Virus record (IMG/VR): IMGVR_UViG_3300045988_112808
Direction: 5' to 3' (one strand)
DNA length: 64,000 nucleotides
Origin: a virus
Below, piece after piece: positions 3,001-63,975 of the stretch. Made by a program: the position numbers and the translations under genes. The notes under the pieces were generated by a model, which saw only the letters and a list, made by a program, of their open reading frames with translations, was not told where the DNA came from and ran no database searches. Positions within the stretch are counted from its first letter, which is position 1, and each line of letters begins with the position of its first letter.

Positions 3001-6000
3001 ATGAAATTGCAGGTCTTAGAGCTGATAAATTTATATCTTCTATAAAATCATTGGTTCCTATTCAAATAAGCTCTGAAACGAACGCTAATGGTACTAAAAG
3101 GTATTCTCTTAACATAGGTGGAGAAACGGCTACTATAATTGAACTGCCTTATCATGCGAGATGGTCTATAGACAAAGAATCGGCTCGTGTTCTTAACCGT
3201 TACACAGACGTGTCTATTCAGGACGTGGGTAATTCCTATTCTTTGGTTTATAAGCGTCTTGATTCAGATGAGTTGGTTCCGTACAGAACAGGTGTCGGAT
3301 TTGGAGAGAATGAGGTAGATAAAATAGATCAGGAAGCATTATCTTCTTTGAAAAAAGGAGATAAGGTTAATCTCGAAATAGATGTAAATGATACCTATAA
3401 TCAGTCTCTTTTTGCCGAATACAATGATGCTGTTCAGTCCGGAGATAAAAAAAGAATAGAATCTGCTGAAAATAAACTGGTATCCAATATGGTTATCAAG
3501 GTCATGAGTGGAAACAGATTCGTTTCTGTTGTAAAAGCTGACACAGGGGGCATAGATGGTATAAGTAAGATAAGAAGAGCGGCTTTCAACAAGTGGAAGA
3601 AGGACGCCGGCCGGTCGGCTACCATCGGCGTCGGCACGCATGTTGTTGCCCAGACCCTTCCCGGAAGACCGGTGTTTAACATGAAGGTAAACGGTCAAGG
3701 ATATGGCCAGGTAGAAAATCTCCCCATTACCGAAAAAGGTGCTGAAAAAGTATCTGATGTCGGATATGTATTAAATGGCAAAGTCGTGCTTAAGAACGGA
3801 TCTAAATACACAGGCTTCCCATTTGCTTATTCTATATTAAATGACAAGGGGAATAATTACAAAAATGTAAGAGTTCCGGTAGTTGTCATCAAAGGTAAAA
3901 ACGGTCTTAATTATCTTTTCCCAGTTAGTCTACGTTCTGTAGAATCAGAGGAAGGGCAGAAATGGATGTCTTTTATAGATATGCTACTTGAATCTGGTGA
4001 TTCTGAATTGCTACAGATGGGTCAAGATGATATACAAGATCTTAATGCGTATCTAACCAAGTTAGGTCTTGATCCGGCTTCGTATCAAGTATCGTATTTG
4101 AATCCTATTTCAGGTCTTAGAAAAGCTCGTGAGGCTATAGAAGAATTATCTACAGTTCCTGATGTTGTTAAGTGGGTAGAAGATGGAAGTAGGAGCGTGA
4201 AAGACATTGTGACGTCTGAAGTAGAATCTGGAATAGATTTCGAAGGTGAGATGTTTGTTGCTCCTAAGATCAGGATCCAGTTTGGTAAATCATCTTCAAG
4301 ACCTAAATCACTTATAGAGGATGATCTTCCTTTCTCTGATGAGGGTAAGACCGTTACTTCTAAGGAAGACGTGGAAGTTTATGAAGAGGAAATGCCAGAG
4401 GAAGGGGCTGCCCGGGAGACTCAGCCGGCGCCATTAGCTCAGCCGGCTCCTGCGGCACAAGATGCGCAGTCTTTACCTGGCAAGAAGCGTACCTCCAGGA
4501 AAAACTTCTCTCTTATGTTAAACGAAATAGAATCTCATATAGAAAAAGAGGGATTGCCGCCTTATGCTAATATTTTTGATTTTATAGCAAGGAAGATTGT
4601 AGGAGGTGATTTGAGGTTTCTTCGTGAGAGAGGTAATCCTAAAAGCCTTAAGGAGGAAATGGGATTAGAACCTAAAGGAACAGTAGGTGATAAAATATCC
4701 ACTCCTTCCGGTAAAGGTGGTAAGACTTTAGAAGAATACGTTTCTTGGCTTCGTTCTCAAACAGATCAGGTAGTCGAGGATTATGTTGGGCCAAGATCTG
4801 ACGAACAAATTATATCAGAGTTGAAAAACTTTTTGAAATATATTAATTTTGTTCCAAGCAAGGCTTTGAATTATTCTCTTAGAGTCAATGGCATGGATAC
4901 CCTAAAAGAATATGGCACAAAAGAGGAAGTAGAAAAAATGGAATCTGATATCAATAGTTTGGTTTCTAAAGTTTTGCCTACGATGGACAACCAAACTATA
5001 GAAGATGTTTCTACTGTAATAAAATCAAACAACTTGCCCGCCATATGGGGGCCCGTGGAAAGCCTTGATATGACAAACGAGGAAAAAATAGAGTTTTTGA
5101 ATAACGTAGCAGATTTCCTTAGCGGCATACCAGAGTATGATGCTGTCGTGGAGTCTATAGAGTCAGAATCAGATAATATTTTAAATGATGGAAAAGAAGG
5201 AAGTGCAGAAGGCGGTGCAGTACGCACTGAGGAAGATGGCGATAAAAAGGGAGATGGAGAAGGCAAAGGACAATCCAGAACAAATGTCGAAGTTGAAAGA
5301 AATGTCGAATTACCTGGATCTGAAGAAGGAAGAGTAGATAACTATAGGAAGAACGGAGATAAGTTCTCTGACATTGCTGAAGTTACTTTATGGCTACTTA
5401 GAAGGGCTGCCGGCATAACCTCTATCCCGGAAGGAGAAGAGGCTTATGTAGAGGGAGATGAGGTTAATAGTATTATGACCGATATGGAATCAAGGTATGG
5501 TATAGACACCATCAATCACTCGCATACGACTAAGGCTATAAGGGATCTTAACGGCGTATCAGGTTATAAAGTAGAATACGGCTTAACCTTTTTGACATAC
5601 GATCCTTTTATTAGAATATCCAATCTAAGGAAAGGATCTAAGGCTGCGAAAGACGAACCTCGTATATCCGAAGAGTCGCTTACTCACATATCAAGGGTGA
5701 CAACCCCTTATTTCCTGTACGGCGGCGATGAAGCATATACATCTGTTCCGGCTAAGGTAGAACCTATACCGGAGAAGATAATGGGTCGTAATGGCATTAA
5801 ATTTGGTATGAGTGTAGTCGAGTTAACCAAATTAGGGTACAAAAAAGCTGGTGGAAACTGGATATATAAATTCTATATGAACTCAGGTGTGTATGATTTG
5901 TATAATATCAGTACCGGTGAAGCGTTTAGGGCAAAACCGGATCTTGGAGTTAAGATAAGTTCCAGTGCATTCATCCGCTCTTTATCTCAATCTGGTAGAA

Positions 6001-6113
6001 AAATACAAAATATGATGAGTAACATGAGTCAGGAAGAGATAGATAGGAATAAGAATCTTGTAGAAGGTTCTGATAATTCGGATTCGATAAATGAGTTAAA
6101 TAAAGAGTGTTGA
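12..6113 (+). CDS. giant virion-associated/ejected-type protein (2033 aa), function unassigned; may be 5'-truncated by the window edge
   Basis: Single uninterrupted 6.1-kb ORF; the frame stays open back to base 3 of the window. Gly-rich hydrophobic segment near the N-terminus (GGLGVGSLGNIGAKLGG), long acidic/coiled-coil stretches, PA-rich linker (QPAPLAQPAPAAQ). The virion/cargo role is inferred from size and context only. Confidence 0.85.
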   Translation: MASEGSYKAALNTNMDKFVGDLDQQIDMLLPHYYKKEVEDYNFGQKLFKDTGNFLWNDVLGNGMSFTVGAMISAYMTGGLGVGSLGNIGAKLGGRIGAKLAARQAANRGIGNLKSVFNDYVRKGVATGRNVGEAAKTMTLLATSAGFESSVEANSFMKQSESDFKDYYRKIYGRDPNAEEMAVFRNSNADVGSAIFAANMGIVGLSNWLLFGKYIGLGGKAIPGLEKKLNKHLFGLGTEVAKPGEMAIKITNPNIGQKIAGNVFNIMKRPVSEGLWEEGSQGAVQNTAEEYVKSRYDNVAMNGAVDVLDAISEGFKKQYTSKEGWTEIGIGAIIGSLFGMREGLFGVKEYSNNQILLERQVNEYNKASSNLNTAALNTLKKSMSLGPQVRSDAQSMTGKELDDAMFEKMSIDNQMGTLEDSAENFRQMVDMMPISEIAEANGMSLEEAKKYKDSIIDNYNNRLSDFRSAQSFAEDLIGDDSKIEFRKYVARNAFLGLQSESRMKDIASVIETLSGQPRVAYALSTFSRLSDRARERAMAIRGIRSRIEELESEIEDLATRPRNVDGKDPQAESIQRKTKELEDLRTNYNNSLSELSTLIGKEFSIEELVSKTESVLSSPLSPISSQDVIEAYDTLVAFDDYFNVKSRQEKKFTAKDKAMRSLVNEYRRSLMDYRNMNNFLSKMLDKRFLAEENRGFSKALSSLWSTPYKGDDKVPDFAEPNKVGEYDTDEVVDQAVSEGKISEDEAWTIKAFMHALDKVREDRMKEAEDDIKESPLTESVSDEDYEAAMDNPIMVPVVRQSIIDKLYTGNADLLTAREKDVYDKYKQDFDDYVSSLGDSPVNLIKSLSEKADRLTSPRSVYEENKAIIDMAKSNLEPDQRKELDDAISSYVDIMNRRDKGEKVDEDKLADSVFTIEDLGQVGNITDLLPYIEQNRIIDKGRISESTLSNFGEDDANIDSLVNELDESDNTPGANIDSAQNPETLMVRRISNDGNERYEIAGLRADKFISSIKSLVPIQISSETNANGTKRYSLNIGGETATIIELPYHARWSIDKESARVLNRYTDVSIQDVGNSYSLVYKRLDSDELVPYRTGVGFGENEVDKIDQEALSSLKKGDKVNLEIDVNDTYNQSLFAEYNDAVQSGDKKRIESAENKLVSNMVIKVMSGNRFVSVVKADTGGIDGISKIRRAAFNKWKKDAGRSATIGVGTHVVAQTLPGRPVFNMKVNGQGYGQVENLPITEKGAEKVSDVGYVLNGKVVLKNGSKYTGFPFAYSILNDKGNNYKNVRVPVVVIKGKNGLNYLFPVSLRSVESEEGQKWMSFIDMLLESGDSELLQMGQDDIQDLNAYLTKLGLDPASYQVSYLNPISGLRKAREAIEELSTVPDVVKWVEDGSRSVKDIVTSEVESGIDFEGEMFVAPKIRIQFGKSSSRPKSLIEDDLPFSDEGKTVTSKEDVEVYEEEMPEEGAARETQPAPLAQPAPAAQDAQSLPGKKRTSRKNFSLMLNEIESHIEKEGLPPYANIFDFIARKIVGGDLRFLRERGNPKSLKEEMGLEPKGTVGDKISTPSGKGGKTLEEYVSWLRSQTDQVVEDYVGPRSDEQIISELKNFLKYINFVPSKALNYSLRVNGMDTLKEYGTKEEVEKMESDINSLVSKVLPTMDNQTIEDVSTVIKSNNLPAIWGPVESLDMTNEEKIEFLNNVADFLSGIPEYDAVVESIESESDNILNDGKEGSAEGGAVRTEEDGDKKGDGEGKGQSRTNVEVERNVELPGSEEGRVDNYRKNGDKFSDIAEVTLWLLRRAAGITSIPEGEEAYVEGDEVNSIMTDMESRYGIDTINHSHTTKAIRDLNGVSGYKVEYGLTFLTYDPFIRISNLRKGSKAAKDEPRISEESLTHISRVTTPYFLYGGDEAYTSVPAKVEPIPEKIMGRNGIKFGMSVVELTKLGYKKAGGNWIYKFYMNSGVYDLYNISTGEAFRAKPDLGVKISSSAFIRSLSQSGRKIQNMMSNMSQEEIDRNKNLVEGSDNSDSINELNKEC

Positions 6114-6115
6114 GT

Positions 6116-9635: not shown

Positions 9636-10202
9636 ATGGATAAAGTTTCTGTTTTTGAAAGTTCGGATTTTGGAGAGCTTAGAATTATTGTAGATCCAAA
9701 AGGAGATGTTTGGTTTGTGGCGTCAGATGTGGCTAAATCTCTTGGATATATAAATGCTAAAGATGCGGTAAAAAGACATGTAGATGATGATGATTCTATG
9801 CTTTTGCAAGTATCTGATAATCAATGGGGCGTAAAACGATCTATATTGAAAACCAGATATATAGATAGTATAAGAATAATTAATGAATCTGGTTTATATT
9901 CTCTTATATTATCTTCAAAATTAGAGTCTGCTAAGAGATTTAAGAAATGGGTAACATCTGAGGTTCTTCCTTCTATTCGTAAAACAGGAGAATATAAAAC
10001 AAGTTCCGGTGGAAAGGGAATTTTGGTCCCTGACTTTTCTAATCCGGCAGATGCAGCAAGAGCCTGGGCTGATCAATATGAAGCTGCTCAAAAAGCTATA
10101 GCCGAAAAGTCGCAGGCAGAGGCAGAAGCCGGCGTTCTGATGGGACGTACATGGGGTACGGTGGTGGTATTTACGACCATTACGGTATGCATGAGAAGAT
10201 GA
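9636..10202 (+). CDS. Bro-N domain protein (BRO/KilAC-type antirepressor family)
   Basis: N-terminal pattern FGELRIIV..G..WFVASDVAKSLGY....DAVKRHV ... INESGLYSLILSSKLESAKRFKKWVTSEVLPSIRKTGEY is the classic Bro-N signature. The last 17 codons overlap the next gene and look non-native. Confidence 0.85.
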   Translation: MDKVSVFESSDFGELRIIVDPKGDVWFVASDVAKSLGYINAKDAVKRHVDDDDSMLLQVSDNQWGVKRSILKTRYIDSIRIINESGLYSLILSSKLESAKRFKKWVTSEVLPSIRKTGEYKTSSGGKGILVPDFSNPADAARAWADQYEAAQKAIAEKSQAEAEAGVLMGRTWGTVVVFTTITVCMRR

Positions 10203-10795
10203 AGGAAATGGAAGAGCGAGAAAACGAGCTGGAAGAAAGGGAAAGAAGGCTCGAAGAGCGCGAACGTCGTCATGAAATGGAAGACCGGGAATACCGGAGG
10301 ATGGGTTACGAATCCTACCCGACCGATTACTATGGAGACGACAGATACTACGGTGACGGACCTCAGATGCGCAGAGGTCGCGGACGTGGCAGAGGTCGTT
10401 CTTATTGAGGAGCAGACGCAGAGGATCCAGCTTATCAGAAATATGTAGATACTTACGGCTACCATTTTTCTAATGCTCTCGCTGATGAGGCGGTAAAGAA
10501 GATGGTCAACGTCGATGGATCCAAGAGGATCTGGAAGCAGCCGGAAATAAAAGATATTTTTGAAAAGTGCGGAGCGAAGAAGCCGGATAAAGCGACATGG
10601 GGCGATGTCCAATATGTCTTTGCAATGTACTATTCGGATGGTTTTCCGAAGGTCTTCAAATGTGAGAACGAGTTGGTGAAAGCTACGTTAATGTATTTGG
10701 ATGATCCGGATGCTCCCGAAGGAGTAGCCTTTATAAGATGGCTTGCCGTGCAAGATTACCTCGGCGAAAAAATAAACTGGAAGGATCTGACCTGA
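10151..10795 (+). pseudogene. single gene split by an in-frame TGA (10406-10408): RG/Y/G-rich disordered N-terminal part plus a conserved-looking C-terminal domain
   Basis: ORFs 10151-10408 and 10502-10795 are in the same frame. The stretch 10409-10501 is open and encodes ...YHFSNALADEAVKKM, contiguous with MVNVDGSKRIW...FAMYYSDG. Only the one TGA interrupts the frame. Confidence 0.55.
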
Positions 10796-10898
10796 GATCC
10801 AGACCCAGGTCCTTCCGGTGGTGCGGGAGCCATAGTAAAAAATATGATTCCCGCATTCCCGTTTTTCCCGTTTGGAAAAAAAGAATAAAAATGTTATA

Positions 10899-10938
10899 CC
10901 GGTCGGCGGGCAATAGAATACCCGTGGCCGGTTTGTTT
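10899..10938 (+). terminator. weak terminator candidate
   Basis: CCGG..CGGG / CCCG..CCGG interrupted stem (10899-10931) followed by TTTGTTT. Confidence 0.3.
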
Positions 10939-11261: not shown

Positions 11262-11489
11262 ATGGAAAATAAGGAAGATTACGTTGGTTACGAAGATCAA
11301 GAACTGTGTAACCGGTATTACAAAGAGGCCGAAGCCATGAGGCAAAAGCAGGACTGGTATCGGCTTAGGGCTGTCCCTGCTCCGGCCAAGGGAACGCCAT
11401 CGCCCGGCTGGGGTCAGCTTGGACGTGGAAATGAAGTTCGTGTCAAGTACGTTAGCATCAATTCAGGATTAGGAGGGGACAGATTATGA
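11262..11489 (+). CDS. hypothetical protein (75 aa)
   Basis: First ORF after the promoter box. Its stop overlaps the next start (ATGA at 11486). Contains a GC-rich patch at about 11330-11440. Confidence 0.6.
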   Translation: MENKEDYVGYEDQELCNRYYKEAEAMRQKQDWYRLRAVPAPAKGTPSPGWGQLGRGNEVRVKYVSINSGLGGDRL

Positions 11490-13913: not shown

Positions 13914-16900
13914 ATGACATCAGCGTGTATTATTAAAAGAGATAATAAAAAGAAAGTTGTTTCTGTCTCTACCATATCAGGGGACAGGTCTATGTTATTT
14001 GATAAAATAGCATCTATTCCTCTTATGGAGAACAGGGAACGGGCCACTACTGTTTTTAAAACCGTATTTTCTAATAAGTTCTTAAAGGCTTTTGGCGACT
14101 GGAGAAAGAGAGTGCCTATCAACAAACCGGCTTATAATAAGGTAAAATCCAACATCGATCTTATTCCGGAAGCCTATAGAGAAAGGGTGTTGGATAAGGC
14201 TTCTAAGATGAGTAATCCTGTTCTTGTGTCAAAATCAGATGTACCTTATGAAATCCAAGAATCGGGCTTTGGATTCTACAGCCAAAATCTGGGTGATAAT
14301 ATTATGTTGGTGGATGCTATGGTCCCGTCAAGTATTTCCGTACCGGAAGGACCGGGAATAGACGCCGGGCAGTATCTACAAGATGCTATATCTTCGGACT
14401 TCACTCCCGTATCTATGGTACAGGATAAGGGTGTTAATTATATGGTTATAAAAGATGGTCTTAAGATATTTAGCCCAGAGGAGTTACCAGAAACAGATTC
14501 TAATCCTGTGGGTGTAACGTATCAGACCGGAGAGCCTCGTTTGTTTTTCATGAACGATCGTAGTCAATTATTTGAAGATTACGGAGAAGCTCTTCGCTCT
14601 GGCGGGAATGATATTAGAATAGGGTTCTTATCAGGCACCGTTCAAGAATCTACCGTGGATGGCGTGGAAGACATTACTTACAAAGCTGGAAAGTATGTTC
14701 TTAATAATCCCAAGTCTTTTATACCGGTCATGACCGCGTCTGCTTCTACTTCTTTATCAACAAAAGGTGGTATAATTAACTACCTTATAAAGAAAGGTCT
14801 TTTGTCCGGATCTAAGATATTCGATCCTGAAACAAGAAGCTATTATCTTACAGGAGAAGGACATACAGGACAAATTAGACTTTTCAATTCAGCCTTATCC
14901 TACACCGAGCTCCGTAATCATTTTGGTTCCGATGTTTCCATGAACGACCAAGGTATGATAACCATAAGCTCGTTGGATAATAGTAAGGTAACTATGAGGC
15001 TCGCCACCGGAGGAACGGAAAGGGTTAGCAAAGAGCAGATAAAGAACGATCTTAAGTCAGGAAGATACAATGAATTGGACGCCAAGTACGATCATTTTGA
15101 TGCGCTTGTAGTTTCATTCATATTAGAAGACAACGATCTTTATGCTGATACTAAAGCTAAGATCGTATCAGATTATAGCAGGCAGGAACGTGATCAACGA
15201 AATTCTATTGTCGAGATACTGAAAACTCTTGGCGTTAGTGTCATAGGTATGACCGACTATATAGAGAAGTACCAAACCAAATACGGGCATGAACCTTCTG
15301 CTAAGGCATTGGCGGATATTGCCAATAACGTAATAGCAGTTGGTGAAGATGCTACTTTATCTGATTTAGTAGAAGAAACAGCCCACTTCCTTGTAGAGGC
15401 ATACAGAGATCAGAATGCCGTTGAGGCTGTTCTGCAAGATGTAGAAGGTACGGAAGAGTGGAACCAGTATGCAGGTCAGTATTATAATACATACGGTAAG
15501 GTATATGAAGGAGCTGAGCTTGATAATGCTGTTAGGAGAGAAATTCTTGGAAAGATCCTCGCCATGGAGATGCAGACCGGCACAGCACAGGCGCCGGTAG
15601 AGCCCACCTCCTTCCTGGGGCGCGTCCGGCAGCTTCTCTCTGGAATCGTAAGCTGGCTTAAATCAGCTTTATCAACCCAAAGACAAGATTTGAATAACGT
15701 TATTAAAAACATTCGTGATCTTGCCATTACTGACATAGATAAAGGATTTGACACTTCTCTGTTAAAGGATAATGACTTTACATTATACTCCCTTTCTTCT
15801 ATGAACAAGAACAAGTTTCTTGAGTCTAAGATCAGATCACTAAGAAAAACATTAAGAGACTTACGTCAGATAAGCTCTGATAGGGCTGTAACTACGTCTA
15901 TGACCCTTGCTCAGCTTAAGACCATAGAAGATAAGATAAATAAGGTAGAGACCGAAATAGACAAGAATGAGATGGCGGCTGCCATGAACAGCATGATCTC
16001 CACAGCCGAAGCTCAGGTTAGATACTTAAGTAATGTGGTGAACACCATCCTTCATGGTGATACCAAAGACGGTAAGCTTCACTTCAATACCAATGATCGA
16101 AAGAACGTAGATATTATCAACAATCAGGTTCTTCCGATCATGAACGATCTTCGAGGATATATCCGTAACAGAAGTACCGAATTTGATGAACGTGAAAAGC
16201 AGGATTATACAAATAGGATCAATACCGTCATTGCCGACATCAATGGTATTCAGTCTGATATTAAATCAGTACAAGACCTTGATGAAAGTACGTTGCTTGA
16301 TAAGTTAATGAACGAACTTCATGTGCCGGCAGATAAGGTAAAGAGAGTAAAAGAATTTTTTGACAAGGTTCAACACGATGTTTCTTGGATAAGTAGGTGG
16401 TTTGGTATATTAGAGCATTCTTCCAGCCCGTTCAATAACGCTCTTGGAGCTATGATTGCCAAAGACAATTACAATGCGATGGTGAATGCCCAGCCCGCCA
16501 TATCCGACTTCCTGGCATATGCTAAAAAGCATGGTTTTAACAAATCTGAATTTGAAAAACTGCTTCAGAAAGTAGACGGCAAAACTTCCAATTACCTTCG
16601 TAGTGCTCTTGATATGGCTAAATACGATCGTAATAAGAAGCTGGCGCAGATGCGAGCGTTTGCGACTGCCATGAACATAGAGATATCAGAAGAAGAAATT
16701 GGTGATGTGGTTGACAATAACCGTAATTACGTATTTAAAAGAGAAGTAGTTGACAAGGACGGAAATACGGTTACTGAAAACGCTAAATTTAAACCATCGT
16801 CCGATAGGGTTAATACCGATATTTTTACCATCGAGCAGGAAAAGATCTATACGGAGCAGATGGAAAAGTGGGATGCTGAAAATTCAGAATTGGAATTTAG

Positions 16901-22690: not shown

Positions 22691-22882
22691 TCAACATAAA
22701 AATTTGTAACCTGGTTTTACTGCCTCTGCTTCTTCTTTTGTATCAAACATTAAGGTAGTGACAGCTCCTATGCCTTCACAAACGTAAGATACTTTTACCC
22801 ACCACCTGAAAATTCCCGATCCGTAATCATCATAATACGGCTCGGAAAGGACCTCTTCTACGTACCCATCTAAGTAATTCAT
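22691..22882 (-). CDS. hypothetical protein (63 aa)
   Basis: ATGA overlap with the upstream stop; AAGGAGG lies 7 nt upstream of the ATG. Confidence 0.6.
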   Translation of the reverse strand: MNYLDGYVEEVLSEPYYDDYGSGIFRWWVKVSYVCEGIGAVTTLMFDTKEEAEAVKPGYKFLC

Positions 22883-23616: not shown

Positions 23617-23632
23617 TAGATTCAACCTTATA

Positions 23633-24820: not shown

Positions 24821-24837
24821 TTGAATGATTTATATCG

Positions 24838-53548: not shown

Positions 53549-53890
53549 CTATCCCATTACAATAATAAAAACATCATCATTATCATCATCGTTGATACTC
53601 AGCGATAGTTTGATTGTCGCTCTTTTATCGTCTCCTGTCTCCTTCCATACAATCTGACATTCTACGTATTCAGGCTCCTTACCTGTTCTTTCTACAAATT
53701 CATGAAATCTTAAATCAATTTCATGTTTGACTTCTTCAACGTTAGATATTATTACCTCATTTTCACAATCCCCGCAAATAGCATGCGCGAAAGATCCATC
53801 AAAATAATCTATTATTTCTCTGGTATTCGGATTTACTATGGCTTCACAAGCAACCTTTGTTCCACCACATCTTGTACATATATATCCCAT
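53549..53890 (-). CDS. zinc-ribbon protein (113 aa)
   Basis: CTRCGG...C and CGDCENE Cys pairs. Confidence 0.6.
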   Translation of the reverse strand: MGYICTRCGGTKVACEAIVNPNTREIIDYFDGSFAHAICGDCENEVIISNVEEVKHEIDLRFHEFVERTGKEPEYVECQIVWKETGDDKRATIKLSLSINDDDNDDVFIIVMG

Positions 53891-53892
53891 AA

Positions 53893-54088
53893 TTATCTTC
53901 TTTTAAAATGTTCAATAATTTCATCTACTGTAACCTTACGCCATGTGATGCAGCCCGCGTCTCCCCTGAACCGGAGCTCTTCGCACTTTACCCCACCTGT
54001 CTCCTGTGGCGTCCGTCACTATCAGCCGTTGACCTGAATCAGTATTATTTGTAATTCTTTGGTGTTCTTTCTGATAATACACCCTCAT
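53893..54088 (-). pseudogene. small gene with an apparent 1-nt frame break at a G4 run inside a GC-rich island
   Basis: ATG 54088 gives MRVYYQKEHQRITNNTDSGQRLIVTDATGDRWG... The +1 frame gives VKCEELRFRGDAGCITWRKVTVDEIIEHFKRR, ending at 53895-53893 just before the next start. The junction is at plus-strand C4 53991-53994. Confidence 0.45.
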
Positions 54089-54103
54089 GATCTCCCCATC
54101 TCC

Positions 54104-54904
54104 TTATTCTTTCAAGTTATGTTTTTTCATTATTTCTTCTATCAATTCGTCTGTTTCCATATAATAATCCCAACAGGAATCAACCTCTTCCCATTCTTCT
54201 CCCTCTTCATCCTCCCTGGATTCATCTTTGTATTTCTTGACAAATTTCACTTTCTTTTCAAGCACATACCCCTTTACATCTCCCCACATCCACATACCTA
54301 TGAATTTCACTTCATCATCAATCAATTTGTCAATTTGGGTTTTCCAATCGGAAGTATTATTACTAACCATTTTTGTGTACCTCTCCTTTGTACAGAAAGC
54401 TATACCTTTAACATAATCCCATTGACTGTATCCTGTTGTGGACCATTCTTTGACAAATATATCTTTGCCTAAGTCTGAAAGAATCTGAATCAATTCTTTA
54501 CATCCTAAGTCTTCTATAAATTCATACGTATAATCATACGTGTAAAGATCTGATGGAGAAATGCTAAAAATTTCTTTATAATACCACATTTTATCATGGT
54601 TATCATATCTCAGTTGATAACCGTCAATCTTGCCTTTCTTAAAATAATTCAGCAAGTCTTTCCATTTAACATATTTACTAATAAGTTTATGTAGTGCATC
54701 TATAAGCGAGTGTCGACTATCTCCGTATTTACCAAATACTTCTCTCCAATCGCACACATCTTGCAGTTGGTATGAATCGCTATATTCCCATAAGAAATAT
54801 GCTGCCATATCCCAACTTTCACAAGGACATATACTGTCAGTATCATAGTATATTTTTATACGATAATTCCCTACTTCTTTTGTTGTAATAAGTCTGTCTT
54901 CCAT
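54104..54904 (-). CDS. hypothetical protein (266 aa)
   Basis: ORF-track ORF; the N-terminal IKIYYDTDSICPCESWD resembles a recurrent phage/plasmid motif of unknown function. Confidence 0.7.
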   Translation of the reverse strand: MEDRLITTKEVGNYRIKIYYDTDSICPCESWDMAAYFLWEYSDSYQLQDVCDWREVFGKYGDSRHSLIDALHKLISKYVKWKDLLNYFKKGKIDGYQLRYDNHDKMWYYKEIFSISPSDLYTYDYTYEFIEDLGCKELIQILSDLGKDIFVKEWSTTGYSQWDYVKGIAFCTKERYTKMVSNNTSDWKTQIDKLIDDEVKFIGMWMWGDVKGYVLEKKVKFVKKYKDESREDEEGEEWEEVDSCWDYYMETDELIEEIMKKHNLKE

Positions 54905-54917
54905 GTTTTTTTATATT

Positions 54918-55370
54918 TTAAATAGTTTTTAACTTCTCATCAATAAATGCATCTATTACATCATAGTATGAACCATTAAAATCATAATTTTCATATTTTT
55001 CCGTAAACTCTTTAGCCCACTCTCGAATGATGTTAAATGCCTGTTCCCTGCTATATTCTTTTGGTCCTGTTAGATACTCCACAGCTTCCACCGATAACTC
55101 TTGCAGATTTCGTAAGTAATTTAAACCAATGCTATATGGTAGCTTACCTACTTCTATACATACATGATGATCTTGTTTAAAGGCGTCCTGCAAGTCTTCA
55201 GGACTCTCTATCAATGACTCAGACTCATCATCTACCCTCACCTTGTATAACTCAAAATCTTCATTTTCTGCCGACACCCATATCTTGTAGGCTTTTTCGT
55301 TGGACAATCTTTTCCAAACAAATCCGTCGCTGAATACAATCAGGCTACCTGTTACTATCGTTCCTTTCAT
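54918..55370 (-). CDS. hypothetical protein (150 aa)
   Basis: ORF-track ORF; ATGA overlap upstream. Confidence 0.65.
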   Translation of the reverse strand: MKGTIVTGSLIVFSDGFVWKRLSNEKAYKIWVSAENEDFELYKVRVDDESESLIESPEDLQDAFKQDHHVCIEVGKLPYSIGLNYLRNLQELSVEAVEYLTGPKEYSREQAFNIIREWAKEFTEKYENYDFNGSYYDVIDAFIDEKLKTI

Positions 55371-55651
55371 TTTTCTTCCTCCTCATTATCCCATCCTAAA
55401 CAAGAATCTAAATGTGAAATAAAAATTGTAGCTCCCTTATTTTCTTCCACAGTAGGATACTCTACCTCATAATAGTCAAATTCAGAGCTCTCTAATCCGA
55501 CCCTATCTTCATCCCATCCATTTTTGGTTCCATCCTCTGCCATTTCTTTAAGCTTTTCCAAAGCCTCTTCTGGTGTTTCTGCTTCAATGGATAATCTATC
55601 TTTCATCCATCCATAAACTCTTCTTTCTACTTCAAATATAAATTCTTTCAT
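55367..55651 (-). CDS. hypothetical acidic protein (94 aa)
   Basis: ORF-track ORF. Confidence 0.6.
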   Translation of the reverse strand: MKEFIFEVERRVYGWMKDRLSIEAETPEEALEKLKEMAEDGTKNGWDEDRVGLESSEFDYYEVEYPTVEENKGATIFISHLDSCLGWDNEEEEK

Positions 55652-55691
55652 TTCGCTATTTTTTTTTGTTTATTATATTTCACATCTTGTA

Positions 55692-56012
55692 TCAAATAAC
55701 CTCCTTGGAAGCATTATTTAATGGTGATTCCTTCAATCTCTTTAGATTAAATCCTATCATATTCCCACACTGTGGACACTTAAAACCATAAGGTTCACTA
55801 ACCATCCTGTCACTTCTGTTGCACATCATACAGTATGGTCGCCATCCGTCATACCATGTCCCTCCCTTGGCTTCCTTCAATCTTCTCAACTTTTCTTTTT
55901 CTGGAAGATCTATATTCTGTTTTAGTGTTTCCATTAATCTGTTGTTTACCGTGATAATATCAATATCTGAGACATCAAAACATAATACGGCTATTTTGAT
56001 TTTCGCTTCCAT
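55692..56012 (-). CDS. zinc-ribbon protein (106 aa)
   Basis: CMMC...CPQCG motif. Confidence 0.6.
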   Translation of the reverse strand: MEAKIKIAVLCFDVSDIDIITVNNRLMETLKQNIDLPEKEKLRRLKEAKGGTWYDGWRPYCMMCNRSDRMVSEPYGFKCPQCGNMIGFNLKRLKESPLNNASKEVI

Positions 56013-56018
56013 GATTGT

Positions 56019-56198
56019 TTATTGTTCTACATCAATAATCCCATACTCTGCTACTTCCAACACATCCTGCACTATTTCCGGATAGTCAGTCGTATCTAAC
56101 GAAGCATCTTGAACGTATGCTTCCGCTAATTTCTTGGCTTCTTCAAACGATTCGGCTTGTATATATAAATCAAGCGTCAATGAAAACGGATATAACAT
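56019..56198 (-). CDS. small acidic protein (59 aa, just below the ORF-track cutoff)
   Basis: ATG 56198 to TAA 56021-56019: MLYPFSLTLDLYIQAESFEEAKKLAEAYVQD... Fills a 188-nt gap. Confidence 0.55.
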   Translation of the reverse strand: MLYPFSLTLDLYIQAESFEEAKKLAEAYVQDASLDTTDYPEIVQDVLEVAEYGIIDVEQ

Positions 56199-56200
56199 AG

Positions 56201-56515
56201 CTAATCTGTTATTCTGTAATAATAATCAAGTTCTTCTCCCTTAAAGTTGTTCATGGCATACTCGTCAGCTTCCCGCCACAACCGGTCATACAATGCAGCC
56301 AGTTCACGATTGCTTTTATAATGTTGCCAGATTTTATGATTCAATACCAGCGTCAATTCTGTAAAGAACTTATAATCGTCTTTCCATTCGCTGAACGCAC
56401 GTTTGTAGGTATCTTTGACACCTGCTATACCATACTTGTCGGCTATGCTGAAATCTTCCCAAAAGGTAGTTATCAGGTCATAGCCATTCTCCTGCATAAA
56501 TTCTCGAAATGTCAT
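56201..56515 (-). CDS. hypothetical protein (104 aa)
   Basis: ORF-track ORF; TTFWEDFSIADKYG...LVLNHKIW pattern recalled from mobile-element genes of unknown function. Confidence 0.65.
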   Translation of the reverse strand: MTFREFMQENGYDLITTFWEDFSIADKYGIAGVKDTYKRAFSEWKDDYKFFTELTLVLNHKIWQHYKSNRELAALYDRLWREADEYAMNNFKGEELDYYYRITD

Positions 56516-56522
56516 ATCCTAA

Positions 56523-57218
56523 CTATTTAAAGGCAATTCCATAATTACTCCAAAACTTTACTTGTTGAGACAAATTCCACGGCATAGTGTTGTATGCTTG
56601 AAAATATTCCCACTCGATTTTATCCTCAAAGCCGGGACAATGATGTTTGACGTAAGCATAAAACTCATCATGCTTCTGTTTTGCAAAATCATCCCCTTCT
56701 TCATCCAGCATGACAATTTTTGGTTTGTTTGCCTCCCGACATTGTTTTGCGGTTTGATAGAATCGCCGAAAGTGTTCGGCATAATACTCGTTTCCGCTAT
56801 AATCAACGAAGGTAACTTTACCTCCATAAATTTTGCAAACCCTTAAAGGTTCCCGTGTTGCTCTCTTTACCGGTCTTGAACCATCCCATAGCCAACCACA
56901 GAACTGTATGCCATCCCAGACAAGATACGGTAAGTATTTTAAAGAAAAAGACTCTATATTCAACACCTCATATTGTACAGGATTAGTTTCTTGTGCTGCA
57001 TCTTCAGCGGTTTTGTATATGGGCATACTTACCTTAAATTTTTCCTCTCCCAATTTGCTGCCAAACCAAAAGATATGTTCGGTATCCACGTTGTTTCCAC
57101 AAATACCGGTATCTTTTATTCTCATGCCGCGATATTCTGCTTCACGAATCACTCCGTTTCTGTGCATAAATACCCTTGTTCCAAAGGGGAACGGGTAAAC
57201 TGATACTTTTCTTTCCAT
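56523..57218 (-). CDS. hypothetical protein (231 aa)
   Basis: ORF-track ORF; the overlapping shorter ORFs on both strands are judged spurious. Confidence 0.7.
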   Translation of the reverse strand: MERKVSVYPFPFGTRVFMHRNGVIREAEYRGMRIKDTGICGNNVDTEHIFWFGSKLGEEKFKVSMPIYKTAEDAAQETNPVQYEVLNIESFSLKYLPYLVWDGIQFCGWLWDGSRPVKRATREPLRVCKIYGGKVTFVDYSGNEYYAEHFRRFYQTAKQCREANKPKIVMLDEEGDDFAKQKHDEFYAYVKHHCPGFEDKIEWEYFQAYNTMPWNLSQQVKFWSNYGIAFK

Positions 57219-57268
57219 ATTGTTTTATTTATAAATTAAAATTCAGCAATATAACTATATACATAATT

Positions 57269-58024
57269 TTATTTTCCCCAGCACCAAAAATTTACAGCGT
57301 ATTTCCCGGTAGTTATAAATATCTTACCTCCTCCTATCTCCGCAAGTATGTTCTTTCCAAATATCCTTGTAAGAAGCGGTATATACTTTGCATCTATAGG
57401 TAAATCCTGGATTTCTTTTATAGGTCTATATGGCACAAACGCTTTGTTCTCATATACCATCTCAATATACAATCCATCCGGTGATTCAAACACGTCTTTC
57501 CCTTTCTGTCTCATCCCAGATCGTATTATCCGTTCTTTCCAAGATTGAATATATGATTTTCTAAGGGTCTCATTTATCTTATTAATGACCTCTTCCTTAA
57601 ATTCGTAATACTCATATATACGACCTTTGTAGTCAGCTATCATTTCTTCAATCTTACTTTCGGATGCCCATAATCCATAATACACATAGCAATCCAATAA
57701 TCTATCTACTGAAGAAACACCAATCAGTACCATTTTAGAAAGTGGATTTCCCTCTTTTTCCAATTCTTCTCTTGCTCTGTCTGTCACCGCATCCCACCAT
57801 TGCCCTTCACACTTCTCTATCTCCCCGTTGTCAAGTACGATATCGAACTTTCTACCTCCGAAAGCTTCTCTTCTCTCATTTCTCTTTGCAAGGAAATCAT
57901 AGAATACACCTCCTATCCTTCCAATAATGGTATCATCTCCGTACTTTGTGCTAATTTTATCAGGCATTTCGTCGAAGACAAGAAACTTCGATTTTCCTGA
58001 TTCTACTAAGTATAATAGCTTCAT
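57269..58024 (-). CDS. hypothetical protein (251 aa)
   Basis: ORF-track ORF. Confidence 0.7.
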   Translation of the reverse strand: MKLLYLVESGKSKFLVFDEMPDKISTKYGDDTIIGRIGGVFYDFLAKRNERREAFGGRKFDIVLDNGEIEKCEGQWWDAVTDRAREELEKEGNPLSKMVLIGVSSVDRLLDCYVYYGLWASESKIEEMIADYKGRIYEYYEFKEEVINKINETLRKSYIQSWKERIIRSGMRQKGKDVFESPDGLYIEMVYENKAFVPYRPIKEIQDLPIDAKYIPLLTRIFGKNILAEIGGGKIFITTGKYAVNFWCWGK

Positions 58025-58035
58025 GATTTATCTCT

Positions 58036-58515
58036 TTAGATGTAAGTTATGCTGCCAACATTAATCTGCATTATATCGTTTTCCAGCGTAATGAAATTAT
58101 TTTGTTTTATGGGTCCAAACATCAATCCATATACACTTACTGTATTAAACAGCCTAACAGTGTGAAAATCTTCATTTAGCTCTACCCTGTTTTTATCCCA
58201 ATATCCCAAATCGTTGATAGTTGCCGGGAATCCTCCTACGTCGTTATGCCTGTAGTAATCGTTTTTATTGAAAACGATTCCCTTTATTAACAGGTTACCG
58301 ATGCTTTTCATGTTGAATCCGGACAACGCGATCTGCTCTGAGATATAACTAATCAAACAGTTATGATACGTGTTTGGCCTATCTCCTCTCTCGTTAATAA
58401 TTTTCTTCCATTTCTTCGTTAATGGAACCCTAATATCCATATATGTACCAAATACGACTATGTTAGGACATTCTCCTTCAAACTTCGTTAAATCTTCTAC
58501 TTTCATAATTAACAA
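58036..58515 (-). CDS. hypothetical protein (159 aa)
   Basis: ORF-track ORF. Confidence 0.65.
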   Translation of the reverse strand: MLIMKVEDLTKFEGECPNIVVFGTYMDIRVPLTKKWKKIINERGDRPNTYHNCLISYISEQIALSGFNMKSIGNLLIKGIVFNKNDYYRHNDVGGFPATINDLGYWDKNRVELNEDFHTVRLFNTVSVYGLMFGPIKQNNFITLENDIMQINVGSITYI

Positions 58516-58608
58516 ACATTTGTATTGTTTTCGTTGTTCACTATCTGATTAATGTATGATCCTGGCCACGAACAGCCAGGCTGACCTCATAGCAGGACGG
58601 GCGCTGCC

Positions 58609-58797
58609 CTACTCTAGCTGTTCTACCCACTCTCTGTACCCTACGTTAAAACCAATAGGATCATACCTTTTGATCATAGTACCATAATTCTCTCTACCGC
58701 AATACCTGTTTTTTCCTCCAATAATCCATCTCTCATCGTCTCTATCTGGAGATATGGAGTTAAGATACTTTTCATAATCCTTTCTACTCTTTCCCAT
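58609..58797 (-). CDS. hypothetical protein (62 aa)
   Basis: ORF-track ORF ending in TAG, immediately followed by a GC-rich twin hairpin. Confidence 0.6.
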   Translation of the reverse strand: MGKSRKDYEKYLNSISPDRDDERWIIGGKNRYCGRENYGTMIKRYDPIGFNVGYREWVEQLE

Positions 58798-59143
58798 CTT
58801 TGTCTTGATTTAAACAATAGTTAATAAAATAAGCAACCTGTTCATTTTCCCCTGTATTATCAAAATCACCTAAAGTCATATCATCATAATCCAGCAGAAC
58901 CATACGAAAACCGTTTTTTTTGACATACACCTCCGTTAAAAACATAGGAATCCCAGCAATTTCTATTATCACCGGAAACTGATCATCAAAGTCAAACGCA
59001 TTATTATCTTCTCCCCATTTTTTAAATTTTAGCTTTATACTTCCACCGTTCTCCACTAATGCCTCTTTGATGTACTTTAATCTTTTTGCATTCAGATCAA
59101 TCTCTGCTTTTTCTATTTCTTTGTACAATTCATTCAGATCCAT
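58784..59143 (-). CDS. hypothetical protein (119 aa)
   Basis: ORF-track ORF; overlapping neighbours. Confidence 0.65.
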   Translation of the reverse strand: MDLNELYKEIEKAEIDLNAKRLKYIKEALVENGGSIKLKFKKWGEDNNAFDFDDQFPVIIEIAGIPMFLTEVYVKKNGFRMVLLDYDDMTLGDFDNTGENEQVAYFINYCLNQDKDGKE

Positions 59144-59645
59144 ATTCCACTATATTTATGTTGTCAAATTTTTCTTTTATAACATCCAAGGCTCCACACT
59201 CGTTTGTTATCATAGCATGCATCCCTGGCTTCATTCTCCACAGATTAAAATACCTTGTCACATTCATAGTGGCATTAAATAATGATATTTCATATCTTGT
59301 GTTTCCATTTTTATCACGCCCTATGTTTTTAATATAACATATGTCTGGCTTGTATTTGAAATAATTAAAAAGCCTATACCATCCCTTCCCGTTACATGTT
59401 TCACGATTCCATATTCCAGCAAGCTTCCTATATCCCCTTACTGGTATTTTCTTTATTTCTTTTGGTACGATCTTGACATACTTTCCTTCTCCGATTGGTA
59501 TGGTCATATTACCTGCCTCTTCAGTACAAAAGTATTCTATTTCAGATGCCATTCCTTTATACACATAGAACCGGTATAAGTTCCCGTCAGGGTCTACCCG
59601 ATCCATGTAATATAATATCACTTTGTCTACTTTTATCTTTTTCAT
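59130..59645 (-). CDS. hypothetical protein (171 aa)
   Basis: ORF-track ORF; ATGA overlap upstream. Confidence 0.65.
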   Translation of the reverse strand: MKKIKVDKVILYYMDRVDPDGNLYRFYVYKGMASEIEYFCTEEAGNMTIPIGEGKYVKIVPKEIKKIPVRGYRKLAGIWNRETCNGKGWYRLFNYFKYKPDICYIKNIGRDKNGNTRYEISLFNATMNVTRYFNLWRMKPGMHAMITNECGALDVIKEKFDNINIVEYGSE

Positions 59646-59970: not shown

Positions 59971-60381
59971 CTACTTAACCTCAACTAATTCTACAGAGCC
60001 GTAGAATTTAGTGAAGCTACCAACAAATTCTCTTATATTTTTATATTCTTCTGGTCGTTTTCTGTTACCATCTTTTATATAATTCACCCACAGTCTATCC
60101 TCTATGTTCTTAATCGCATTCTCTATCGTAAATTCGTCGCTGACGCTCATTAAACACGAAGACCCGGTTTTCTTATGTGGTTTATATATCCTTGAAAAAG
60201 ACCACATTTTTATTCTATCATATATATATCCGTTGTTGGGATAAACGAATCCTATCCGGCTGTCACCTTCTTTAGCGTAAAACACACCTGGCTCCTTCCC
60301 GCCCTTTCTATATACTACAAATCCTTTTTCTTTTAGGATATTAACCACTTTATCTAATTTATTTTCTACGTTCATTTTCAT
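59971..60381 (-). CDS. hypothetical protein (136 aa)
   Basis: ORF-track ORF. Confidence 0.65.
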   Translation of the reverse strand: MKMNVENKLDKVVNILKEKGFVVYRKGGKEPGVFYAKEGDSRIGFVYPNNGYIYDRIKMWSFSRIYKPHKKTGSSCLMSVSDEFTIENAIKNIEDRLWVNYIKDGNRKRPEEYKNIREFVGSFTKFYGSVELVEVK

Positions 60382-60832
60382 GCAAAAATTTAAAAACGAC
60401 TCTCATTATAGTTGCGAAGTTCTCTACCTTAATCCACTCATGAGCTACTGCTCTAAGTACAGACGTTTCATATGTTGGAATATTGTCTTCTTCAAGCACC
60501 TTACAAGAAGCCAGAACTCCTTCGGTCGGCTTTAGTCCACGGTCATGCAGCTCGCAGAGACCGTCTGGCCGGCGGAATGCGCACCACCCGTCTTTCTCTG
60601 TCGGCTGGATCATCGCTATTGGTTTTTCCTTCACTGCAAGATACCCTACCATCCACATTGTTTCTTTTAACCTATCAGCGTATCCGGCATCTATGATAGC
60701 CTCTATGTCTTTTGGCGTACCAATACAAGGAACCTTACACATGTTCTTGCATTTATCACATGTACAAGGTTGCTCCCATCTATTATGATCTATGCCTACC
60801 AACTTCTTTATCCGTTCTACTTCCTCTTTCAT
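60359..60832 (-). CDS. Cys-cluster protein, YkgJ-like (zinc/iron-chelating domain) candidate
   Basis: CTCDKCKNMCKVPC and GWCAFRRPDGLCELHDRGLKP resemble the CxxCxxCC ... C.F....g.C.i...RP pattern. Weak assignment. Confidence 0.4.
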   Translation of the reverse strand: MKEEVERIKKLVGIDHNRWEQPCTCDKCKNMCKVPCIGTPKDIEAIIDAGYADRLKETMWMVGYLAVKEKPIAMIQPTEKDGWCAFRRPDGLCELHDRGLKPTEGVLASCKVLEEDNIPTYETSVLRAVAHEWIKVENFATIMRVVFKFLHENERRK

Positions 60833-63623: not shown

Positions 63624-63854
63624 GTCTTATTTTACAGTAAACAACTTGCTTTTTTAAGCACCAGTCTTGCGATTCTGAGAGTGAACACCGTTCGGAGTTG
63701 TTAAAAAATATACAATCTTTGCAGAACATAAGAGGATCTTCGTCGTCACCAACTACTTTGACATCATACTCTATACCATACAATTTTAATCTAAATACAT
63801 CTCCTGTTTTTTAGAAGACAAATCCATGTTCGGACCGAATGTTATTACTTCCAT
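63607..63854 (-). pseudogene. small Cys-containing gene with an apparent 1-nt frame break at an A6 run
   Basis: ATG 63854 gives MEVITFGPNMDLSSKK.., stopping after 22 codons. The -1 frame continues TGDVFRLKLYGIEYDVKVVGDDEDPLMFCKDCIFFNNSERCSLSESQDWCLKK... to TAA 63609-63607. The junction is at plus-strand T6 63807-63812. Confidence 0.45.
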
Positions 63855-63879
63855 ATAATTATGTTTTATTGTTTGTGAG

Positions 63880-63975
63880 ATGCCCAGAATCGAACCAGGA
63901 CCGGCACATACATACCGGCACGCCGCGCCATCCCTCTATGATACACAAATAGACATGCCTATTCTCACGAACCGA
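63880..63975 (-). other. GC-rich intergenic island with a tRNA-like T-arm and short direct repeats; not a canonical tRNA
   Basis: The minus strand contains CCTGG-TTCGATT-CTGGG (a T-arm-like stem-loop with two G-U pairs that forms only in the minus-strand RNA). It also has the direct repeats GTGCCGGT x2 and GGCATGTC x2. I could not build a full cloverleaf. Confidence 0.3.

Follow-up and report, generated by a model that had tools for sequence, protein, structure and literature searches.

Discrete GC-rich islands of about 100 bp in an AT-rich crAss-like phage and its close relatives

Occurrence and base composition of the islands

The 64,000-nt stretch analyzed here (IMG/VR record IMGVR_UViG_3300045988_112808, hereafter the window) derives from an AT-rich, human-gut crAss-like phage of 37.5% GC with 93% identity to the GenBank phage csAssE-Sib (Sib). 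It carries short GC-rich islands that are confirmed to lie far beyond chance, to be specific to its clade, and to be indifferent to codon position and gene boundaries. Selection on the base composition itself is the explanation favored here, tentatively, with a probability of about 0.4. The islands are about 75–120 bp long, occur at a density of about one discrete 100-bp patch per 2.7 kb and lie mostly within ordinary genes; a link with gene starts or ends was looked for and none was found.

A sliding 80-nt scan of the window gave a mean GC of 0.375 and an SD of 0.072 (binomial SD, 0.054); the distribution is heavy-tailed on the right, and 19 islands reached a GC of at least 0.58 over 80 nt, with peaks of 0.60–0.71. 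In the complete Sib genome there were 56 islands, against 1–4 in shuffled sequences. Log-odds segmentation resolved the islands into discrete units (median 95 nt) of uniform size, with sharp edges about 100 bp apart. The original prediction, made by eye, had listed 19 intervals, 16 of which were recovered (GC 0.56–0.69), while those at 10100–10400 (0.54, a 388-nt region), 10800–10935 (0.49) and 63885–63960 (0.54) proved weaker or broader. The islands at 1546–1649 and 31486–31604 were not on that list. The islands lie outside the normal variance of the genome. The G:C ratio within them is 1.17, more balanced than the background value of 1.6. They are spaced a little more evenly than expected at random (CV 0.72, P = 0.027), although the evidence for regularity is weak.

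Control phages of similar GC content essentially lack such islands. At a threshold of mean + 0.25, T4 and crAss001 each gave 0.0 and Cellulophaga phage phi17:2 gave 0.2 islands per 10 kb, compared with 2.0 in the window and 2.1 in Sib. When the threshold was loosened to mean + 0.20, the peaks in phi17:2 mostly fell in its tRNA cluster.

The suggested shift of synonymous codon choice toward G/C-ending codons was borne out strongly. Genome-wide GC3 is 0.36, and 83 windows of 27 codons reached a GC3 of 0.75 or more, whereas 50 rounds of synonymous-codon resampling yielded 0.2 on average and 7 at most; at a cutoff of 0.70 the numbers were 164 and 4.8. GC3 at island peaks is 0.78–0.89, codon positions 1 and 2 are also raised (GC 0.48–0.63 vs. 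0.40), and at least 10 islands with a GC3 of 0.70–0.89 encode ordinary or catalytic residues. In three islands for which the expectation from amino acids was calculated (1546–1649, 3602–3674 and 4394–4499), amino-acid composition accounts for roughly half of the excess in GC; the islands are not explained by it alone.

Positions of the islands

The 2033-aa gene at 12–6113 (+) contains two islands found by GC scan and segmentation. The one at 1546–1649 has a GC of 0.62, compared with 0.49 predicted from its amino acids (z = 4.0), and the one at 3602–3674 (GC3 0.78) has 0.69 compared with 0.56 (z = 4.1). The stretch at 4394–4499 encodes a Pro/Ala/Gln linker (EGAARETQPAPLAQPAPAAQDAQS); its GC of 0.65 (0.59 predicted, z = 2.1; GC3 only 0.54) is largely driven by amino-acid composition. 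The same is partly true of 40301–40418, which encodes a Pro/Glu/Ala linker in a replication-factor gene (39273–40592, −), and Pro/Ala linkers had indeed been put forward as the source of some islands. A broad region of a different kind (10044–10431, +) encodes the C-terminal portion of a low-complexity protein rich in Arg, Gly, Glu and Tyr, also termed RGG-rich; relative to Sib, a ~2.5-kb deletion with its junction at about 10114–10126 has removed the N-terminus of this protein. The island at 11325–11428 takes up about half of a 75-aa gene (11262–11489, +) and, like that at 19598–19694, was detected by GC scan, GC3 and segmentation. The latter lies in a 2137-aa gene (13914–20327, +) together with 15557–15657 (GC3 0.89) and a weaker island, 20202–20282, that involves mainly third codon positions (GC3 0.78; positions 1 and 2, GC 0.37). 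The strongest of all (23154–23271; GC 0.71, GC3 0.89) is in a gene for a 248-aa hypothetical protein (22879–23625, −).

Further along, the island at 28243–28321 covers helicase motif III (GFTATPCRLRTY) of the gene at 27310–28731 (−), where the predicted count of 19 G/C-ending codons among 25 (28246–28320) was exact. This island is shared with the related lineage L166, which also uses GC-ending codons here, while in L168 AT-ending codons specify the same residues. The island near the C-terminus of a PD-(D/E)XK nuclease (29689–29789; gene 29604–30623, −) is specific to the window lineage; it is lacking in L166, and L168 and L173 have an N-terminal island instead. Two more are common to L166, one in an Ala/Glu-rich coiled-coil region of a flotillin-like gene (31486–31604; gene 31143–32843, −) and one over the N-terminal Zn-ribbon of the primase (38588–38677; gene 37690–38703, −), with a folding z of about −3. 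At the C-terminus of the DnaB-like helicase (35213–35299, GC3 0.85; gene 35140–36267, −) the island position is common to L175, L166 and L173, and the sequence has diverged. The island at 60510–60616, in a 157-aa gene (60359–60832, −), was found by GC scan, GC3 and segmentation.

Two islands lie largely or entirely between genes: 53939–54036, in a 213-nt gap that holds only a doubtful 50-aa ORF and is missing from Sib, and 58561–58645, which is flanked by a 10-bp inverted repeat. The island at 51672–51748 (−) is in the 3′ part of the gene at 51617–52630 (−), and the window allele is frameshifted relative to Sib; the lesion was placed as a ~8-nt deletion in a by-eye nucleotide alignment, and at least three haplotype classes (GC 0.45–0.58) occur in the population. 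Frame anomalies had been reported at three islands; these are real, but each has a separate local cause and they are not a property of islands.

The island at 46651–46748 (−), at the C-terminus of an Lcl_C-like protein (46603–47442, −), is hypervariable among members of the population, with codon changes of the NNC type, and so resembles the variable repeat (VR) of a diversity-generating retroelement (DGR). Such repeats are GC-richer patches of ~100–130 bp at the 3′ end of the target gene, and Sib carries an annotated DGR (RT, TR and VR); however, a search for a template repeat matching 46651–46748 found none. The likeness is limited to this one Lcl_C-like C-terminus; polymorphism in the other islands is of the ordinary kind, and they can lie at any point in a gene.

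Conservation among related phages

Sib, L166, L173 and L168 carry islands, as does the window, whereas the more distant relative L176 carries none. The primase, DnaB, helicase and flotillin islands recur in L166. Densities at mean + 0.25 are 2.0–2.4 per 10 kb in the window, Sib, L166 and L168, and 3.8 in L173; deeper sub-clades have similar densities at other positions. Identity at four-fold sites is only 0.35 for the background and 0.41 for shared islands, so these sites are saturated. Evolution has preserved the base composition and position of the islands and not their sequence. Assembly chimerism, one of the causes originally considered, is not supported, since the same islands were recovered in the GenBank genome of Sib and from IMG/VR, ENA and Logan in more than 150 independently assembled contigs, where they follow the phylogeny. 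An origin as insertions was rejected, since the islands align to their homologues without gaps and encode conserved motifs.

Mutation, polymorphism and recombination

New mutations in islands are AT-biased, as elsewhere. The per-site rate ratio of rare S>W to W>S variants is 1.5 in islands and 1.9 in the background, and a ratio of 1.5 implies an equilibrium GC near 0.40, not 0.62. With SNPs that are linked and were polarized by the major allele, synonymous S>W variants in islands were skewed to low frequency relative to the background (Fisher OR 2.05, p = 3.5e-5), and the frequency spectra of S>W and W>S variants inside islands did not differ significantly (p = 0.28).

This fixation bias would also be expected if GC-biased gene conversion or repair at fixed initiation sites built short, functionless GC tracts, with recurrent nicks or breaks (from nucleases or replication restarts) being mended from co-infecting genomes with a bias toward G/C. 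Such a process is unlikely, but survives better than the other alternatives. The islands resemble the GC-biased gene-conversion tracts at recombination hotspots in mammals, birds and yeast in being short and G/C-enriched at all codon positions, in the drag on amino-acid usage toward Gly/Ala/Arg/Pro, in the bias against fixation of GC-to-AT changes and in the turnover of positions between sub-clades. Rare variants are also ~1.4–1.7 times denser per site in islands, and the population recombines heavily (r2 about 0.13 at about 400 nt everywhere). Against this, recombination at islands is not detectably raised: linkage disequilibrium across them is not lowered (mean r2 0.124 vs. 0.131, p = 0.69), and a marginal enrichment of mosaic breakpoints within 50 nt (26 vs. 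20.7 expected, P = 0.048) disappeared at the other paddings tested, although power to detect 100-bp hotspots is limited by the very low linkage population-wide. Known tracts are 1–2 kb gradients, whereas the islands are ~100 bp, sharp-edged without gradual decay and slightly regular in spacing, and their positions outlive synonymous saturation. The setting is a phage, with no known hotspot-defining factor and no motif found that would define a nicking or cutting site.

Folding, motifs and known elements

Improbable, too, is the idea that the islands are structured RNA elements in transcripts (small RNAs, decay barriers or regulatory structures) whose structure is kept and not their sequence. 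Their size (~75–120 nt) and GC contrast match those of tRNA and other small structured RNA genes in AT-rich genomes, including the tRNA-gene peaks of the Cellulophaga control; the balanced G:C ratio is in keeping with this, and two islands outfold their own shuffles (38578–38687, z about −3; 40289–40398, z about −2.9). However, the mean folding z of the islands, −0.45 and −0.49, is the same as in random windows (−0.36 and −0.59). Islands do fold ~1.7 times more stably than the background (about −34 vs. −19 kcal/mol per 110 nt), but they gain nothing over composition-matched shuffles, in keeping with the favored reading that composition alone counts. Folding of the two intergenic islands was not significant, covariation of the DnaB island across four lineages was not meaningful (covariation term −0.5), searches at the islands gave no match to Rfam families or tRNA genes, and most islands lie within translated ORFs. 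A search for a motif or repeat common to the islands found none. A specific RNA or DNA structure or a protein-binding motif, as first suggested, therefore finds no support.

Yeast mitochondrial GC clusters and byp elements, Rickettsia palindromic elements and enterobacterial REP/BIME are likewise short, GC-rich and scattered through AT-rich or average genomes, sometimes inside coding regions, and REP elements work via stability, as mRNA-decay barriers and gyrase sites. Unlike the islands, with their gapless alignments and lack of shared sequence or hairpin excess, these are families of repeated palindromes that arise by insertion. None of the known elements, RNA families or transfer processes explains the islands, and the original statement that no described mechanism produces this pattern still stands, as literature searches gave nothing relevant.

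A mosaic origin and mixed causes as unlikely readings

Still less probable, and already largely refuted, are mosaic patches acquired from higher-GC relatives by short-tract recombination, or undecayed relics of a GC-richer ancestor. Relatives with 40–43% GC do exist in the clade (L169, L174 and L175; gene-wide GC3 0.57–0.69), and polymorphism at the 51.7-kb island includes AT-richer alleles, found in Sib and some of the contigs. The islands, though, are no closer in sequence to the GC-rich relatives than their flanks are, exceed them in GC3, gave no matches when sought in other GenBank phages, and occur with unremarkable diversity in every close relative. Given AT-biased mutation within islands and saturated four-fold sites in the lineages that share them, a relic or old import would have decayed. 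Gene conversion from higher-GC relatives, another of the causes first proposed, is not supported, on the same grounds.

The least probable reading, in which chance and pseudogene debris would combine with a DGR variable region and with GC driven by amino acids in Pro/Ala/Gly/Arg-rich segments, holds for the four or five special cases named above (two linkers, the RGG-rich protein, the VR-like region and the frameshifted gene) and draws on the share of GC excess due to amino acids, but is refuted as a complete explanation by the enormous synonymous-site excess, the islands over ordinary or catalytic residues, the count in Sib relative to shuffles, the nearly island-free controls, the uniform size and the positions conserved across lineages.

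Possible selection on composition

The best-supported cause, also among the original suggestions, is selection acting in some form on the DNA or RNA. Under the favored reading, natural selection would maintain the high G+C of the ~75–120-bp patches, and not their sequence, in a genome otherwise drifting toward AT. The push of amino acids toward Gly/Ala/Arg/Pro is a cost that counts against selection, and it is explained equally well by GC-biased repair. A general need for stability is also doubtful, since other AT-rich phages manage without such islands. A property that rests only on composition over ~100 bp is thermodynamic stability, whether of the DNA duplex, an RNA:DNA hybrid or the transcript, and we propose that the islands may function as sequence-nonspecific "stability clamps", with about one in every 2.7 kb. 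As such, they might serve as stable priming or R-loop zones for replication, as barriers to strand opening or topoisomerase sites, or as barriers to exonucleolytic mRNA decay.

Genome context

The window has a GC content of 37.5% and is 94.6% coding by our own ORF map, and its genes switch from the plus to the minus strand at about 22 kb. It carries two giant virion genes and a replication module (SF2 helicase, PD-(D/E)XK nuclease, DnaB-like helicase and primase). OR575929, 'phage csAssE-Sib' (hereafter Sib), is 93% identical to it over 83% of the window length; this phage from the human gut has a genome of 151,256 bp, annotated with structural names of the crAss type (muzzle, ring, portal), and hundreds of contigs near-identical to the window are found in IMG/VR. 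The motif CTAG occurs at three sites in the 64-kb window, against about 112 expected, and at two in the 151-kb Sib genome, and this near-absence suggests that restriction sites or the TAG codon are strongly avoided. GGCC and GATC also occur less often than expected, and among 4-bp palindromes only CCGG and GCGC are in excess.

Presence/absence polymorphism is frequent in the population (23590-24870, 31030-32870, 25420, 26960, 30970, 35120 and 53660-59460). A gene for a cytosine-5 methyltransferase is absent from about 55 of 80 relatives and one for a flotillin-like protein from about 15, some relatives have insertions of 0.36-1.3 kb at one or more of four sites, and a 5.8-kb segment of the window is missing from Sib.

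GC-rich islands are discrete and exceed genome variance

The GC content of 80-nt windows has a standard deviation of 0.072, compared with a binomial value of 0.054, and a heavy right tail. Nineteen islands with GC of at least 0.58 are present in the window, with peaks of 0.60-0.71, and segmentation resolved them as discrete units (median 95 nt) in which both flanks drop directly to baseline GC. The complete Sib genome has 56, or one per 2.7 kb, compared with 1-4 in shuffled sequence. At a peak threshold of 0.25 above the genome mean, T4 and crAss001 (34% GC) have no islands. In GenBank the helicase has its nearest relative in Cellulophaga phi17:2 (34% identity), where islands at this threshold number 0.2 per 10 kb; when the threshold is relaxed to mean + 0.20, the peaks listed for that phage fall mostly in its tRNA cluster.

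The shift extends to codon choice. Among windows of 27 codons, 83 have a GC3 of at least 0.75, compared with 0.2 predicted by resampling synonymous codons from the usage of the genome itself, which places the islands beyond normal genome variance, as the original prediction had proposed. The reported count for helicase motif III, 19 of 25 codons ending in G or C, is exact. Codon positions 1 and 2 are also affected (GC of 0.48-0.63 inside islands vs 0.40). Amino acid content accounts for about half of the GC excess in the three islands tested, and so is insufficient by itself to produce them; the one tested case in which nearly all of the excess comes from amino acids is the Pro/Ala linker at 4394-4499. 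Pro/Ala/Glu linkers coincide with islands both there and at 40301-40418.

The suspicion that the islands reflect chimeric assembly can be set aside, since Sib and some 160 IMG/VR contigs reproduce the same islands in frame, and the sharing of islands by contigs of other lineages from ENA and Logan is consistent with phylogeny. Sib GC equals window GC at each island, and all of the approximately 80 + 80 population contigs carry them, with a nucleotide diversity like that of the flanks. The island phenomenon is robust; its mechanism is one that we infer.

Islands at gene anomalies and in intergenic gaps

At 10.1-10.4 kb, the GC-rich stretch is the C-terminal part of an Arg/Gly/Glu-rich protein, which has 125 aa in Sib. 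A deletion of about 2.5 kb relative to Sib (Sib 96.2-98.7 kb) has its junction at about 10114-10126. An antirepressor-like gene is cut short there and the RGG-rich protein has lost its N-terminus, and this loss explains the frame anomaly seen at the site. The island at 51672-51748 lies in a gene (51617-52630, minus strand) that is frameshifted relative to an intact Sib gene. The frameshift is the majority haplotype, carried by the window and most population contigs, and nucleotide alignment by eye places the lesion as a deletion of about 8 nt within 51700-51760. The C-terminal domain downstream of it (DVTGHQWSLNRYENDLLTAGCHRIAYSEMESIAKQLGWA) is still conserved, in the other frame, and the locus may represent a split gene, a programmed frameshift or a recent lesion. 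Two islands, at 53939-54036 and 58561-58645, are in gaps between genes within the 5.8-kb segment that Sib lacks.

Motifs, insertions and mobile elements

A shared motif had been considered possible, and motif discovery across the islands returned only a weak excess of CCGGC/AGCCGG. CCGGC occurs 63 times in islands, against 26 expected, without strand bias, and this enrichment is possibly a codon effect. No repeat family links the islands, none has a second copy in the window, and among GenBank phages they match the sibling genome only. Repeated mobile GC-rich elements (REP/BIME, RPE, mitochondrial GC clusters, MITEs) were rejected on this basis, as they would have to be copies without a recognizable common sequence. 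Insertion is likewise ruled out by codon alignments that are essentially gap-free over conserved residues: those across the islands of helicase motif III and the primase Zn-ribbon have no gaps, that of the DnaB island has a single gapped codon column at its 3' end, and the residues encoded by the islands are conserved also in lineages without the island. There is no preferred distance between islands and gene starts, and their spacing is slightly more even than random (CV 0.72, P=0.027).

Many close relatives carry a helicase of 817 aa that is interrupted between residues 36 and 37, in Walker A, by a 344-aa intein with Hint and homing endonuclease domains (PF05203); the window allele (27310-28731, minus strand) is without it. 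The insertion point corresponds to about 28624 in the window, some 300 nt from the helicase island (residues ~133-168), so that this island is neither an intein site nor a co-conversion tract. Population indel sites appear to adjoin some islands and not most. In two related lineages, L168 (18628-18731) and L173 (19488-19603), a GC island is present at the helicase N-terminus (residues ~5-45), adjoining the Walker A position that holds the intein in other lineages; this nearness may be coincidence.

The gene at 46603-47442 (minus strand) specifies an Lcl_C-like protein (E=6.6e-4, below Pfam's cut-off) with a C-terminal variable part at 46651-46748. Population haplotypes read by eye differ there by codon exchanges such as AGC/GTC, TAC/AGC, TTC/TAC and GGC/CTC. 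Such NNC-type swaps at a C-terminus are typical of the variable repeat of a diversity-generating retroelement (DGR), but no template was found, and this may be an orphan or trans-served variable repeat. The annotated template repeat of Sib (46215-46310) matches only its annotated variable repeat, and nothing in the full 151 kb of Sib pairs with its copy of the 46.6-kb island. With neither the window nor Sib containing a cognate template repeat, the islands as a group do not qualify as DGR variable repeats. The 3'-end location and NNC/NNT variation are not seen in other islands, and adenine-specific mutagenesis of the DGR type was rejected as the cause of the islands because T is depleted along with A on the sense strand.

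Island position and composition are conserved among relatives

Syntenic contigs from graded relatives were retrieved via primase homologues. In lineage L166, which shares 73-83% amino acid identity with the window, islands in the primase, DnaB, helicase and flotillin genes coincide in the alignment with those of the window, and L175 and L173 likewise carry the island at the DnaB C-terminus. Identity between the window and L166 at four-fold sites is 0.35 in the background and 0.41 in shared islands, which amounts to saturation. The aligned islands have many synonymous differences, and their codons still end in G or C. Composition and position are thus conserved and sequence is not. The deeper sub-clades, L168 and L173, share other island positions (the PD-(D/E)XK N-terminus, the middle of the replication factor and a shifted primase site), and their island density is similar or higher; helicase motif III of L168 uses AT-ending codons. 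No islands were found in the more distant L176 (42% primase identity, 34% GC). L169 and L174 have 43% GC and are uniformly GC3-rich, with gene GC3 of 0.57-0.69. Across the clade, genome GC spans 0.33-0.43 and gene-wide GC3 0.25-0.69 (L169, L174 and L175 vs L166, L168, L173 and L176), so that close phage lineages differ by large compositional shifts.

Population variation indicates a fixation bias

Population SNPs were classed by major allele. Per-site rates of rare variants in islands are 0.159 for G/C-to-A/T changes (S>W) and 0.105 for the reverse (W>S), a ratio of 1.5 compared with 1.9 in the background, and mutation alone would bring island GC to about 40%. A reduced supply of mutations to islands was discounted, as the density of rare variants is higher there. 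Relative to the background, low frequencies are over-represented among synonymous S>W variants in islands (OR 2.05, p=3.5e-5), and W>S variants in islands show no comparable confinement. The combination of AT-biased mutation and S>W variants held at low frequency indicates a fixation bias that preserves GC in the islands, an outcome predicted equally by GC-biased gene conversion and by selection for GC.

The phage population recombines very heavily: population alignments of window positions 16-61 kb give a mean r2 of about 0.13 between common SNPs some 400 nt apart, and 323 distinct mosaic breakpoints were counted in 45 kb.

Explanations for the islands

Composition over about 100 bp appears to be kept regardless of strand, frame and gene boundaries, and for this reason a thermodynamic property is suspected. 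The folding energy of islands, per 110 nt, is about -34 kcal/mol, compared with about -19 in background windows, and sequences of island composition all fold equally well; the stability of the DNA duplex and of RNA:DNA hybrids is trivially dependent on composition alone in the same way. We tentatively favor selection for local nucleic acid stability (probability roughly 0.4). The process served may be, among others, the priming of replication, R-loop formation, the regulation of DNA opening or topology, or the protection of transcripts. A broader and more doubtful proposition is that the islands are functional elements of a new class, for which base composition is the only defining feature. 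They would be GC 'stability clamps', each about 100 bp long and recurring every few kb through coding sequence, kept by selection and serving a genome-wide physical process, and codon choice, and even amino acid choice, would be sacrificed to hold them in position.

The main rival, GC-biased repair at fixed sites, is appreciably less probable than stability selection. It would explain both the fixation bias and the amino acid cost, but no recombination signal or site-defining motif was detected. When HMM-derived mosaic breakpoints were compared with circularly shifted islands, P was 0.23, 0.048 and 0.20 at pads of 0, 50 and 150 nt, so that breakpoint density near islands is raised marginally at most, and linkage disequilibrium across islands is like that of controls (mean r2 0.124 vs 0.131, p=0.69). 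A local rise in recombination was thus undetected by either approach, both of limited power.

Structured RNAs embedded in transcripts, relics of GC-rich relatives and a heterogeneous mixture are all less likely than stability selection or GC-biased repair. The first is improbable as a general account. ARAGORN predicted no tRNA genes, and Rfam gave no match at gathering thresholds over the whole window and none at E<=1 over 53.8-58.8 kb. Folding beyond that due to composition, which had been raised as a possible cause, was not borne out: against dinucleotide shuffles of the two strands, the 19 islands have mean z-scores of -0.45/-0.49 and random windows -0.36/-0.59, and the two intergenic islands are unremarkable (z -0.6 to -1.4). 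The covariation term of the DnaB island is -0.5, from four lineages only and with low power. A structured non-coding RNA or tRNA identity was judged unlikely on these grounds (no family match, no folding excess, no covariation in the DnaB island). One stretch picked solely as a background folding control, 17000-17109 (plus strand) inside a gene for a 2137-aa protein, folds unusually well, with an MFE of -31.5 kcal/mol (z=-3.2) that none of 200 shuffles equaled.

Imports or relics from GC-rich relatives are more improbable again. Gene conversion patches from higher-GC relatives had been suggested, and when aligned with L169, L174 and L175 the islands are not particularly similar to them; mosaic import is also opposed by the lack of matches in other phages and by islands held in common across saturated divergence. 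A purely heterogeneous mixture of causes is the least probable account.

No description of islands of this kind was found in the searchable literature, and known analogues each fail at least one defining test.

Implications

If selection acts within genes on elements defined only by composition, nucleic acid physics rather than the proteins would shape part of the synonymous variation, and even of the non-synonymous, in this clade of very abundant gut phages, and codon usage studies, detection of horizontal transfer and selection scans would misread such islands. If GC-biased repair is the cause, no known example would be as sharp or on as small a scale, and none would have been known before from a virus. 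Selection for local stability, if true, would offer a concrete, recodable target for learning how uncultured 150-kb crAss-like phages replicate, transcribe or protect their genomes.
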